Shown: positions 31,510 through 33,833 of the stretch, one piece after another | Layout of the letters: the number at the start of each line of letters is the position of its first letter | Numbering within the stretch: position 1 is the stretch's first letter | IMG/VR virus record: IMGVR_UViG_3300015214_000028 | Coordinates: 1 to 64,000 of that record | DNA from: a virus | Lineage: Duplodnaviria; Heunggongvirae; Uroviricota; Caudoviricetes | Direction: 5' to 3' (one strand) | Length of the DNA stretch: 64,000 bases | The notes under the pieces: generated by a model | The model's database searches: none | The model's input: only the letters and a program-made list of their open reading frames with translations | Told to the model about the DNA's origin: nothing | Translations under genes and position numbers: made by a program

Positions 31510-32880
31510 ATGTTTGCCAAAACAGCTAATTATACTACTACTCTAAATGGAATGCCTGCTTTCAAGACAACCAATAGTGCTTGTCTTGATCTATTTTATA
31601 ATTTCGGAGCCATGAGGGGGCAAAATATTCTGCCCCTATTTCGCTCTGCTTATAAAGAAAACCCCTATCTTGCTCTCCGAATCCTGCTATGGGGTCGTGA
31701 TGCACGAGGGGGAGCAGGAGAGCGTCAGCTATTTCGCAGCGTTCTTTCAAACCTAAGCGATCTAGAGGTTACCGTTCTACTTCCCAAAATTCCAGAAGTA
31801 GGGCGTTGGGACGACCTTCTTTCAGTTCCTGTCAATACTAGTGCGCGCACTATTGCACTAGAAATGATTAAAAACGTTATTGAAGAAGGTAACGGTCTAG
31901 CTGCTAAGTGGATGCCTCGCAAGGGTGCTGTAGCTATTGAACTTCGTAAGGCTTGGAAAATGACCGCCAAGCAATACCGTAGGTTTCTAGTAACTGCAAC
32001 AAATGTTGTAGAAACGCAAATGTGTTCTGGCAACTGGAATGAGATTGAGTTTAGTAAAGTTCCTTCCGTTGCTATGTCAAAATACAATGCGGCTTTTCAG
32101 CGACATAATCCAGTAGGATTTCAAAAGTATAAAGACGCTCTAACTGCTGGGACTACTAAAGTTAATGCTAATGCGGTATTCCCATACCAGATTCTAGAAA
32201 TTGAAGATGCTCAGCTACGTACTGCTATGTGGGATGCACAGCCAAACTACATGGTAGCAAATAGCGCAGTGTTGCCAGTTGTAGACCGTAGTGGTTCCAT
32301 GACAATGGCTAAACTGCAGGGCAGCAAGCTTAGTGCAGAAGATGTTGCAGTATCTCTAGGGCTATATTGTGCTACAAAAAACCTTGGGCCTTTTAAAGAT
32401 CTAGTGGTTTCTTTTGCTGATAAGCCTGAGATTCAGCTTCTGCAAGGTACTCTAAACGACAAACTTTACCAGATTAAGCACGATCTGGATGTTGGGTACA
32501 GTACTAATCTAATGGCTACGCTAGACCTTATCCTTACGGCTTCCAAAGCTATGGGAGTTAGTCGAGAAGATATGCCAAAAGTTTTGCTCTTTCTGTCGGA
32601 CATGCAGTTTAATGATGCTCTCAGTAAAGAGTGGAATGAATCCCTTCTAGGTACTATTAGGAGCAAATATACGGCTGCAGGGTATGACATGCCCGCAATC
32701 GTATTTTGGAATCTAGTGTCTTATGGTAATGTTCCAGCCCTAGGTACTGAAGCAGGCGTAATGATGGTTTCAGGATTTTCGCCAAGCATTCTTAAAGCAG
32801 TGCTTAGCGCTAATTTTGATCGCATTACTCCAGAAAGACTAATGCTAGATGTTGTATTGAGTCCTCGATACGATTTCTAA
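31510..32880 (+). CDS. rsr: Ro60/Rsr-like protein (TROVE domain + C-terminal vWA domain)
   Basis: 456 aa. The C-terminal VVDRSGSMT is a MIDAS DxSxS motif. N-terminal composition and size match the TROVE module. Embedded in the tRNA cluster. Confidence 0.55.
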   Translation: MFAKTANYTTTLNGMPAFKTTNSACLDLFYNFGAMRGQNILPLFRSAYKENPYLALRILLWGRDARGGAGERQLFRSVLSNLSDLEVTVLLPKIPEVGRWDDLLSVPVNTSARTIALEMIKNVIEEGNGLAAKWMPRKGAVAIELRKAWKMTAKQYRRFLVTATNVVETQMCSGNWNEIEFSKVPSVAMSKYNAAFQRHNPVGFQKYKDALTAGTTKVNANAVFPYQILEIEDAQLRTAMWDAQPNYMVANSAVLPVVDRSGSMTMAKLQGSKLSAEDVAVSLGLYCATKNLGPFKDLVVSFADKPEIQLLQGTLNDKLYQIKHDLDVGYSTNLMATLDLILTASKAMGVSREDMPKVLLFLSDMQFNDALSKEWNESLLGTIRSKYTAAGYDMPAIVFWNLVSYGNVPALGTEAGVMMVSGFSPSILKAVLSANFDRITPERLMLDVVLSPRYDF

Positions 32881-32887
32881 CCGGATA

Positions 32888-32952
32888 AGGGTGCTAACAG
32901 CAAATCTTATAAAATCTTACTTTAAATAGGAAAATAATGCACCCTGTTAAAA
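32888..32952 (+). repeat. copy 1 of a covarying hairpin element (AGGGTGC-TAACAGCAA ... GCACCCT-GTTAAAA) overlapping the start codon of 32937..33125
   Basis: Read directly; the related copies are at 33630-33747. Confidence 0.6.
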
Positions 32953-33125
32953 CTGGTATTTTAAATGTTAAAAGTCATTCTAGGATTGGCCCTGGTGGTT
33001 GGAAGTGTAATTGTTGTGGTCCACCACCAAAATATCGTAAACTTTTTGCACGAAAGCATAAAAAGCGCATCTATCGCTTTTTAGATAAATTTTACGGCTA
33101 TAGCTCAGTGGAATTAGAGCAGTAG
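32937..33125 (+). CDS. small basic Cys-rich protein (62 aa; GGWKCNCCGPPP)
   Basis: Track ORF; its 3' end overlaps tRNA-Arg. Confidence 0.35.
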   Translation: MHPVKTGILNVKSHSRIGPGGWKCNCCGPPPKYRKLFARKHKKRIYRFLDKFYGYSSVELEQ

Positions 33126-33171
33126 GCTTCTACCCTATTGGTCGGAGGTTCGAATCCTTCTAGCCGTGCCA
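33094..33171 (+). tRNA. tRNA-Arg(TCT)
   Basis: ACGGCTA/TAGCCGT acceptor; D arm GCTCAGTGGAATTAGAGC; loop CTTCTAC; T arm GGAGG-TTCGAAT-CCTTC; encoded CCA. Coordinates accurate to about 1 nt. Confidence 0.7.
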
Positions 33172-33271
33172 CTTAAGGCCTATGGGACTGCATGGAGTGG
33201 TCGCCTGCCTGTCACGCAGGATATTCAGAGGGGATCGTTACCCCTATAGGTCGCCAATAAAGAGAAACTGT

Positions 33272-33625
33272 ATGATACGAGAGCTCGAACCATACCCGTA
33301 CTTAAAATTGTACATTGCTGTGCGGGATGATTTTCCTAGTAACATGGTGCCTACTCTAATAGCTCACAGCATGCTTTCAGCTCATTTAATTGCTACTGCT
33401 GACGCAGACTATATTTATAGAGAATGGCTAGTTAACAGTTATCGAAAAGTGGTAGTTAAAGTAAACGAAAAAGAATATAATAAAATTTTAGAAGACTGCC
33501 CTATAATTCATCAAGGCAGTGAAAGCAATACTTTTGAAGGGCGTTTAAGCTCCATTGTAGTAGCTCCAGTTTTTAGTGATAGGGTTCCCAATGTTTTGAA
33601 ATTCGCAAAACTTTGGAAACCTTAA
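33272..33625 (+). CDS. hypothetical protein (117 aa; the internal ATG of the track ORF, which as drawn runs through a structured element)
   Basis: RBS AAAGAGA. The upstream 90 nt contain two hairpins flanked by the direct repeat GGTCGCC. Confidence 0.4.
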   Translation: MIRELEPYPYLKLYIAVRDDFPSNMVPTLIAHSMLSAHLIATADADYIYREWLVNSYRKVVVKVNEKEYNKILEDCPIIHQGSESNTFEGRLSSIVVAPVFSDRVPNVLKFAKLWKP

Positions 33626-33629
33626 AGTT

Positions 33630-33747
33630 TAGAGTGCTAACAGCAATTTTAATTTATATACTCGGAAAGTAACCGCACTCTGTTAAAAGAATGGTAACAG
33701 CAATTTTTATAACTTTTGTAAAGTAATAATTCCATTCTGTTATGAAT
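33630..33747 (+). repeat. two tandem ~58-nt copies of the covarying hairpin element (AGAGTGC-TAACAGCAATTTT ... GCACTCT-GTTAAAAG and GAATGG-TAACAGCAATTTTT ... CCATTC-TGTTATGAA)
   Basis: The stem halves differ between copies but stay complementary within each copy. TAACAGCAA and CTGTTA are invariant. Confidence 0.6.
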
Positions 33748-33833
33748 AGATATTAAAAAGTGCGCAGAGTATCAGCACGTAGTCAAAACTACTCTAAATT
33801 TCATTTTGCAACTTGGAAAACCGGAGTACCTGA

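Follow-up and report, generated by a model that had tools for sequence, protein, structure and literature searches.

A stem-plus-ACAGCAA RNA module accompanying genes for DUF2828/DUF7788 Ro60-like proteins in phages: candidate Y-RNA-like partners

Bacterial relatives of the Ro60-Y RNA pair include the protein Rsr with its small RNAs YrlA and YrlB, of which YrlA is defined by a permuted tRNA-like arrangement (PMC4201824), and in phages the Ro60 of Thermus phage phiLo with Yrl1 and Yrl2. Homologues in a further protein family, DUF2828/DUF7788, are annotated 'Ro-like' at best and no partner RNA is defined for that family; in two studies nearby abundant RNAs or tRNA genes were guessed to be Y RNAs, without identification (PMC12282133, PMC11482910). 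Here a locus with such a gene is described from a tailed phage (Caudoviricetes; IMG/VR record IMGVR_UViG_3300015214_000028, positions 1 to 64,000 of the record), the whole 64,000-nucleotide (nt) stretch being referred to as the window. The gene, an open reading frame (ORF) of 456 amino acids (aa) at 31510-32880, and all features given below with window coordinates and a strand lie on the plus strand. Four hairpin elements found in the window are probably the smallest members of a Y-RNA-like family and, among Ro60-like proteins, the cognate ligands of the DUF2828/DUF7788 branch, as judged from sequence comparison.

The four elements follow a common plan of 5′ AG-N5, a 2-nt spacer, ACAGCAA, an A/U-rich loop, N5-CU and a G, with 7-bp terminal stems and loops of about 25-35 nt, and were scored with R1, a covariance model built from 31 diverse copies. 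Element 1 (32888-32946, plus strand; AGGGTGC-TA-ACAGCAA, a 35-nt A/U-rich loop, GCACCCT-G; 54.8 bits, E = 4.3e-10) begins 8 nt past the DUF2828 stop codon; its loop contains a Shine-Dalgarno sequence, and its 3′ arm begins at the G of the ATG of a 62-aa ORF at 32937-33125. Element 2 (33631-33682, plus strand; AGAGTGC-TA-ACAGCAA, loop, GCACTCT-G; 59.1 bits, E = 3.6e-11) begins 6 nt past the stop codon of a PTH2-like ORF and leads a tandem pair whose second member is element 3 (33688-33739, plus strand; AGAATGG-TA-ACAGCAA, loop, CCATTCT-G). The latter is among the seed sequences of alignment A2 and has no cmsearch listing of its own, probably owing to its overlap with the flank of element 2. Three nt after it stands an ATG that is the start of a 156-aa DenV-like gene in relatives, a gene deleted in the window. 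Element 4 (25407-25457, plus strand; AGGATAG-AT-ACAGCAA, loop, CTATCCT-G; 51.3 bits, E = 3.1e-9), absent from a preliminary description of the locus, was found by a scan for ACAGCAA with complementary flanking arms; it carries ATACAGCAA and lies between a tRNA-Glu gene and a sigma-70-like promoter match, 6 kb 5′ of the protein gene. The preliminary description had reported the other three as hairpins with compensatory stem changes, and all three were recovered as such, with the stems AGGGTGC/GCACCCT, AGAGTGC/GCACTCT and AGAATGG/CCATTCT: TAACAGCAA is exact at 32895, 33638 and 33695, its sole three exact matches in 64 kb, and GTTA follows each of their 3′ stem arms. When long versions of the module were sought in the window (arms up to 420 nt apart, one motif mismatch), only noise was found besides the four short copies.

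The elements owe their significance to comparative evidence and not to folding energy, which for the four alone is not significant (z between -1.1 and -2.05), nor to the 9-mer count, since 5 of 100 shuffles contain three exact matches as well. Elements 1-3 are present in two close relatives (93% and 89% protein identity), where stem and motif are unchanged and the loops have diverged; element 1 is kept, with a variable loop, in the relatives numbered L004, L005 and L006, and element 2 in L004 and L006. A late promoter inside the loop was considered and rejected, since close relatives do not share the sequence of the loops.

Viral contigs scanned with the single protein gave three distant loci and close relatives were taken from the protein database, while 80 IMG/VR loci with 45-50% identical homologues formed the survey set. 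In a plain scan of these 80 loci, stem-flanked ACAGCAA occurred 64 times on the gene strand and twice on the opposite strand. From 80 sources the R1 search returned 116 matches at E≤1; all are on the gene strand, 104 lying upstream and 7 downstream of the DUF2828 gene, which itself contains none. A match ends within 120 nt 5′ of the ATG in 56 of the 73 loci with enough upstream sequence, 13-16 nt being the commonest spacing. In the R1-derived alignment 98.7% of cells pair and 206 double-sided changes are spread over five of the seven stem pairs, against at most 25 in controls with the register slid by 1-3 columns; the paired percentage leans high because the alignment was fitted to the model, whereas the variety of the stems is independent of the fitting. 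Among the 68 best distinct copies (median length 54 nt) the second pair G-C, the fifth pair U-A and the G after the stem are invariant, CAGCA is present in 68/68 and the following A in 67/68. A U-rich 5′ flank and the CUGU 3′ end are conserved as well. Inversely, when IMG/VR was searched by the RNA pattern alone, 86 of 115 testable matches had a same-strand DUF2828 homologue in the fetched locus, placed immediately downstream in 52 of those 86. By this linkage no other candidate for the cognate RNA of the DUF2828 protein comes close to the hairpins. The earlier proposal that they could be that RNA is thus upheld in so far as the module tracks the protein family; as canonical Y RNAs they do not qualify, their motif being ACAGCAA.

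The protein was described beforehand as a 456-aa ORF on the plus strand at 31510-32880, as was indeed found, and as a Ro60/Rsr homologue of TROVE-plus-vWA type, which holds at the level of fold and not of sequence family. Pfam assigned DUF2828 (1.9e-27) and DUF7788 (1.4e-36), with otherwise only weak VWA matches; TROVE (PF05731) gave no match for the ORF, and a phmmer search of the PDB with its sequence found no Ro60. PHROGs places it in family 850, 'RNA-binding protein'. A profile of 59 sequences matched the phiLo TROVE protein marginally (E = 0.35) over 35 residues of the MIDAS (metal-ion-dependent adhesion site) region only. An AlphaFold model built on 59 homologues (predicted local distance difference test score 88.3) shows an alpha-helical domain with a vWA domain after it, the arrangement of the Ro60 fold. 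With this model the top nine Foldseek matches in the PDB were all of Ro60 type, including Xenopus Ro60, Deinococcus Rsr and Thermus phage phiLo Ro60, at E of about 1e-7, template modelling scores up to 0.63 and full length. The MIDAS (DxSxS...T...D) is complete, with D259, S261, S263, T332 and D364 invariant in the 59 homologues. The fold match together with the missing TROVE sequence match indicates that the protein, as modelled, is Ro60-like by fold and a separate family by sequence. Lack of TROVE homology, which the preliminary description had named as one ground for giving up the idea, would have misfired here, the ORF having no Pfam TROVE match and yet a predicted Ro60 fold. Some GenBank homologues are already labelled 'Ro-like RNA binding protein' or 'putative Ro sixty-related protein'. 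The co-location with a conserved RNA module suggests that the DUF2828 protein may bind Y RNA-like or misfolded RNA.

The family is widespread, as tblastn found it in at least 710 phage records and more than 5,800 database proteins match the 456-aa protein at E≤1e-20. Hosts of the phages carrying it include Escherichia, Mycobacterium, Listeria, Staphylococcus, Campylobacter and Vibrio, and among the sequenced carriers are Listeria phages P100 and A511, the Felixounaviruses, KVP40 and cluster-L mycobacteriophages. The RNA module recurs beside homologues of only 30-44% protein identity in Listeria, Campylobacter, Ralstonia and Synechococcus phages. Two tandem copies lie upstream of gp165 in Listeria phage P100, and three copies, one with an insert of about 80 nt, stand behind a promoter, TTGACA-17-TATCAT, some 70 nt before CKA15_055 in Listeria phage CKA15. 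Campylobacter phage F361 has two tandem copies between tRNA-Met and the gene, Ralstonia phage RSP15 one copy within a tRNA cluster and Synechococcus phage BUCT-ZZ01 one copy upstream of the gene. Weak copies were found in mycobacteriophage Appletree2 (two, E = 0.012 and 0.019, in the gap after the gene of a locus without tRNA) and in Felixounavirus HY02 (E = 0.15 and 0.88, in gaps between tRNAs just after the gene). Metagenome-assembled 'bacterial' contigs added 17 more matches at E≤0.1, all on the gene strand.

Published observations on two of these phage groups fit the proposed picture, namely transcription in CKA15 and counter-defence in Bas63. The most strongly transcribed parts of the CKA15 genome include unannotated non-coding regions that lie no more than 2 kb upstream of the Rsr-like gene CKA15_055, and these were guessed by the authors to be Y RNAs (PMC12282133). 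In Felixounavirus Bas63, the Ro60-like gp130, encoded directly upstream of tRNA genes, counters the ppl defence system (PMC11482910); from synteny with HY02 we infer that gp130 is an orthologue of the DUF2828 family. As a separate observation, the CKA15 non-coding region 26,236-26,727, which accounts for up to about 67% of phage reads and carries the annotated tiny ORFs CKA15_059 to 061 (PMC12282133), coincides with a match to the Rfam ROOL RNA (L094 1687-2238, corresponding to OR088597 at about 26,195-26,746; full model, 90.1 bits, E = 8.4e-17, gathering score 99.1), a match that was not identified in that paper. In P100, gp160 (L092 6738-8021), annotated as 'tRNA splicing ligase' of the RtcB type, is encoded on the strand of the DUF2828 gene, 1.3 kb downstream of it, and phosphohydrolase and 'tRNA amidotransferase' genes are found in the same locus. 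The placement of this ligase gene recalls the Salmonella operon rsr-yrlBA-rtcBA.

In many loci the same closure, a 7-bp stem, spacer and ACAGCAA with the 3′ arm and GU, surrounds larger inserts. Most copies have a 25-40-nt A/U-rich loop; inserts of relatives can reach 100-200 nt, and the long versions measure 120-235 nt overall. Three tandem RNAs of about 165, 235 and 57 nt precede the gene in L030. The first two of these (1974-2139 and 2147-2380) are recurrent in many IMG/VR loci, and their inserts are conserved across loci (e.g. ...TGCTATAGAAGGTGG...) with no Rfam family at E≤1. In L034 (1558-1677), L036, L052, L065 and L048 the insert runs from a T arm through a closed acceptor-like hairpin to a D arm, so that these relatives have a permuted tRNA-like domain in the V-T-AS-D order of YrlA. 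Long versions matched the full Rfam YrlA model (RF02553) with 40.1, 30.2 and 28.5 bits, the best being L036 1783-1905 at 40.1 bits, all below the gathering score of 69; the E-values were 8.7e-6 to 0.019 in a 24-kb search and 7e-8 on a 201-nt stretch alone. The shared closure, the inserts in YrlA order and the matches to YrlA together suggest that structurally the module would correspond to the end of a Y RNA to which Ro60 binds, although its conserved sequence is another. The YrlA model sets its ggCga over AACAG and pairs AACAG with CUGUU, which differs from the covarying 7-bp stem. AACAG/CUGUU is a possible alternative pairing outside the core fold, because it cannot fully coexist with the 7-bp stem and the family as a whole conserves no more than CUG(U). 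An H-type pseudoknot of UAACAG with CUGUUA, the cores pointed out in the preliminary description, was likewise set aside, as it would leave no linker nucleotides and shares C and U with the 7-bp stem; it is at most an alternative pairing, and of this longer complementarity too the family-wide conservation covers CUG(U) only.

By analogy with Ro60 and Y RNA, the stem with CAGCAA would be the protein-binding module, and the hairpin RNAs may be transcribed together with the tRNAs and the protein mRNA and then excised from the precursor. During infection the resulting particle could, by the same analogy, serve in the quality control or decay of RNA or in counter-defence. Translation would probably be lowered as well when the protein binds a hairpin that adjoins a start codon, and this effect would fall on the Ro-like gene itself in most relatives and, in the window, on the 62-aa ORF and on the start of the lost DenV-like gene.

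Several results weigh against this reading. Rfam at gathering threshold found only tRNAs in the window, and neither Y_RNA nor YrlA matched the locus or the whole window at permissive E-values (YrlA E≤2), so that the Rfam check proposed beforehand came out negative. The four window elements have no tRNA-like domain and represent a minimal form, the closure with a short loop, which is no YrlA-type RNA. Their ACAGCAA after a 7-bp covarying stem stands against GNCGAA in a bulged helix in YrlA, the known Y RNAs having GGUCCGA/GNCGAA. There was no R1 match in 12 of the 80 IMG/VR loci and none within 120 nt of the start codon in 17 of the 73 with enough upstream sequence. Several divergent groups, among them the DUF2828 loci of Akkermansia metagenome-assembled genomes, gave none at E≤0.1, and in KVP40 only a weak candidate was found (9.7 bits, 6-bp stem, ATG in the 3′ arm). 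An overlap of the CKA15 modules with the reported highly transcribed regions could not be shown, and the only transcribed region of that phage with published coordinates is the ROOL RNA and not the module. Furthermore, the evidence for a contact between protein and RNA consists of their co-location, and a leader that acts purely in cis would likewise fit the fixed 13-16 nt before the start codon.

The last point leads to the alternative that survives best, although we regard it as unlikely, in which the hairpin would act solely in cis, as a translational operator or 5′ leader that the Ro-like protein or another factor binds on the mRNA to control initiation of the next gene, and would give no free small RNA. 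The stem ends at most 120 nt 5′ of the DUF2828 ATG in 56/73 relatives, mostly at 13-30 nt with a Shine-Dalgarno sequence directly after the stem; the 62-aa ORF has its Shine-Dalgarno sequence and start codon within element 1, an ATG closely follows element 3, and in KVP40 the ATG is inside the 3′ arm, though of a weak match. Phage translational operators are well known from the MS2 coat protein hairpin and from the RegA, gp32 and gp43 operators of T4, and the module is like these a hairpin over a Shine-Dalgarno sequence or start codon which a phage protein could bind, including on its own mRNA. It differs from them in its multiple copies, its tandem arrays, its copies far from ORFs and its large-insert versions. 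In the tandem arrays of L041, CKA15, F361 and of window elements 2 and 3, an ORF adjoins the last copy only. Other copies, lying ahead of a promoter (window element 4) or between tRNAs (HY02), lead into no ORF, and the 120-235-nt versions that hold tRNA-like inserts have this closure too. For these three reasons an effect in cis is not considered the sole role of the module.

Much less probable is that the hairpins are processing or punctuation signals of a tRNA-mRNA precursor, such as RNase E, RNase III or RNase P-type sites or 5′-end stabilisers, unrelated to the Ro-like protein. Such signals would fit the position of the elements between tRNAs and ORFs on the tRNA strand, the conserved U-rich 5′ flank and CUGU 3′ end and the lack of terminators between the genes, but the Appletree2 elements lie beside the gene in a locus without tRNA, the motif-first search recovers DUF2828 genes in 75% of testable cases, and the invariant loop motif and invariant stem pairs point to a dedicated binding partner. 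Promoter-stem-loop recombination cassettes are described in T4-type phages, and repeats acting at the DNA level, be it as cassettes of that type, as a protein-binding site or as an origin element, have a still smaller chance of accounting for the module. The elements are repeated and intergenic, lie beside differences in gene content (the DenV-like gene of L004 and L006 that is deleted in the window), and a promoter-like site follows element 4; against this stand the absolute strand bias of 116 to 0, the compensatory stem changes with a loop motif fixed on one strand only and the distance of 25-200 nt between the arms. Intrinsic terminators or chance hairpins, suggested by the stem-loops after the stop codons at elements 1 and 2, can be practically dismissed, since there is no U tract, the loops are 25-40 nt long, the terminator scan called none of them, and conservation across many unrelated phages excludes chance.

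The surroundings of the Ro60-like gene are rich in tRNA genes, with a cluster at 25163-33256 (plus strand) of 15 ARAGORN calls, to which Rfam adds a tRNA at 30517-30614. A small cytidine-deaminase-like ORF (31093-31416, plus strand) is followed by tRNA-Met(CAT) at 31417-31491 (plus strand; called by ARAGORN, Rfam tRNA 57.6 bits), which was correctly placed directly 5′ of the protein gene in the preliminary description and fills the slot where most relatives have a hairpin. Its suggested role as a Y-RNA candidate is not borne out, as it is an ordinary tRNA. Downstream of the gene and element 1, the 62-aa basic ORF (32937-33125, plus strand), whose start codon is embedded in element 1, has a Cys cluster GPGGWxCxCCGPPP, matches PHROG 25404 at 5.6e-7 and is also called as a gene in relatives. 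Its end is overlapped by the 5′ part of an ordinary tRNA-Arg(TCT) at 33094-33171 (plus strand; ARAGORN, Rfam tRNA 67.1 bits) that had gone unmentioned before. Between the following tRNA-Asp and hairpins 2 and 3 lies the 117-aa PTH2-like ORF (33272-33625, plus strand; Pfam PTH2 at 0.0039, below cut-off, and PHROG 5822 at 7e-40). The region 33742-33835 beyond hairpin 3 is the remnant of the 156-aa DenV-like gene (weak Pfam Pyr_excise match), which is intact in L004 and L006; only its first and last few dozen bases are kept in the window, where the ATG after hairpin 3 is followed by a stop after two codons.

The tRNA-Asp(GTC) at 33177-33256 (plus strand) is atypical. It had been taken for a two-hairpin tRNA-like structure lacking acceptor and D arm, at about 33175-33270, and for another possible Y RNA, but ARAGORN calls a complete tRNA-Asp with full cloverleaf here and in three relatives. 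As read, it has a 7-bp acceptor stem (GGCCTAT/ATAGGTC), a 4-bp D stem, an anticodon loop CTGTCAC, a T arm AGGGG-ATCGTTA-CCCCT and an encoded GCCA end, and in our own reading the usual U8, A14, T54 and A58 are G, G, A and T. The Rfam tRNA model did not match 33177-33256 even at E≤10. The minimum-energy fold is cloverleaf-like, the gene is kept in L004 and L006, with an acceptor G-T pair changed to G-C in L006, and the sequence is 76% identical to an annotated tRNA-Asp of the crAss-like phage cr111_1. By sequence this appears to be an unusual tRNA gene outside the Ro-like RNA module, and no Y-RNA candidate.

A sigma-70-like promoter match, TTGACT-17-TATAAT, is found at 31052-31080 (plus strand; consensus match only), and the terminator scan of the region called no intervening terminators between the genes. 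One transcript from this promoter-like site could thus extend from the deaminase gene and tRNA-Met over the Ro-like gene to the hairpins and tRNAs, a view to be taken with the fact that promoter-like matches in the region are no more numerous than in shuffles. A second such site, TTGATT-17-TATAAT at 25460-25488 (plus strand; consensus match), comes directly after hairpin element 4 and is itself directly followed by a tRNA-like sequence ending in CCA (25497-25572; Rfam tRNA 27.7 bits against a threshold of 29, no ARAGORN call), which may be a degenerate tRNA or a tRNA mimic. The Rfam tRNA at 30517-30614 is a long-arm tRNA (56.5 bits) missed by ARAGORN; in close relatives a tRNA-Leu(TAA) adjoins a tRNA-Ser(TGA). 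Sub-threshold group I intron matches were found at 45549-45779 and 46553-46707 (39.2 and 35.2 bits), and two more (21.9 and 19.8 bits; 29703-30339) flank an HNH-endonuclease-like ORF at 29797-30273; these suggest intron or homing-endonuclease insertions. A relaxed motif scan gave two copies of a G+C-rich hairpin, AACCCGGGG-N-TCAGCAA...CCCCGGGTT, at 12544-12604 and 14125-14176, which do not match the AG...CU-G module. In the viral contig L054, upstream of the DUF2828 gene, a match to the bacterial class A RNase P RNA (1301-1517; 67.2 bits against a gathering score of 100, E = 3e-18) spans the whole model within only 217 nt and may be a reduced phage RNase P RNA.

Outside bacteria and their phages, a resemblance was found to the Class I RNAs of Dictyostelium. 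Elements 1-3 matched Rfam RF01414 with 26.9 (element 1), 18.9 and 18.4 bits and the relative L039 with 30.6 bits, all below the gathering score of 41.5; RF01414 was the only non-tRNA Rfam family matched by all three window elements in the searched stretch, and the E-values of 0.04-0.1 are by themselves compatible with coincidence. Class I RNAs are 42-65 nt long with a 6-bp terminal stem, many compensatory changes, the ends AAG and CUGU and an 11-nt motif next to the 5′ arm, and are reported absent outside Dictyostelia (PMC7919456). The motif, CCUUACAGCAA in the Rfam consensus, contains ACAGCAA and is identical to the phage UAACAGCAA in 7/11 positions. Common to both are also the length of 42-65 nt, a stem of 6-7 bp with compensatory changes, an A/U-rich remainder, a 5′ end (A)AG and a 3′ end CUGU. 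The conserved G is one position off relative to the motif, and the Class I RNAs are eukaryotic with a Dictyostelium upstream sequence element (DUSE) promoter about 60 nt upstream, whereas the phage loci have sigma-70-like promoters. Their known direct binder is Rnp1A, a protein with an RNA recognition motif (PMC7919456), and the four proteins pulled down with DdR-21, a Class I RNA, include DDB_G0281243, of unknown function (bioRxiv 10.1101/2020.04.05.026054). DUF2828 proteins of eukaryotes are mentioned in plant papers. In a covariance search for Class I RNAs outside Dictyostelia, Kjellin et al. obtained the Arabidopsis candidate ath_can_1 (score 40, GTTTTC-ATT-ACAGCAA...GAAAAC-TG) and dismissed it (bioRxiv 10.1101/2020.04.05.026054); plants encode DUF2828 proteins. 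That the Class I RNAs and the phage stem-plus-ACAGCAA RNAs form one class, the cognate RNAs of DUF2828-family Ro60-like proteins, is a tentative idea which we hold to be doubtful. If it were true, the Class I RNAs, discovered in 2004, abundant and lacking a known mechanism, would be Y-RNA analogues, with DDB_G0281243 or another Dictyostelium protein as DUF2828 partner, and if the resemblance is real a 20-year-old orphan RNA class would gain a testable protein partner.

The closest comparison remains that with the Ro60 systems of bacteria. No description of the module was found in the literature searched, and the candidate RNA family, widespread in phages, is absent from Rfam 15. Its 50-60 nt with invariant positions offer a concrete, mutable RNA to test in the CKA15 and Bas63 systems. 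In Thermus phage phiLo, Ro60 is a TROVE protein and Yrl1/Yrl2 carry a CGAA motif (PMC12135203; PDB 9KOP, 9L5Y), and the window system has neither; the DUF2828/DUF7788 protein is also unlike Rsr in not being Pfam TROVE. As with Rsr and YrlA/YrlB (PMC4201824; RF02553), a gene for a ring-plus-vWA protein lies beside small RNAs on the same strand that are closed by a stem of their 5′ and 3′ ends and share a conserved motif near the 5′ end; in many loci at least one of them has a permuted tRNA-like domain. Genes related to tRNA are near in Rsr/YrlA systems too, which may be compared with RtcB in P100. The pairing of Ro60 with Y RNA was already known; new here is probably the DUF2828-associated CAGCAA module, by which the Ro60-Y RNA principle would come to cover a second protein family, one whose recognition motif differs.

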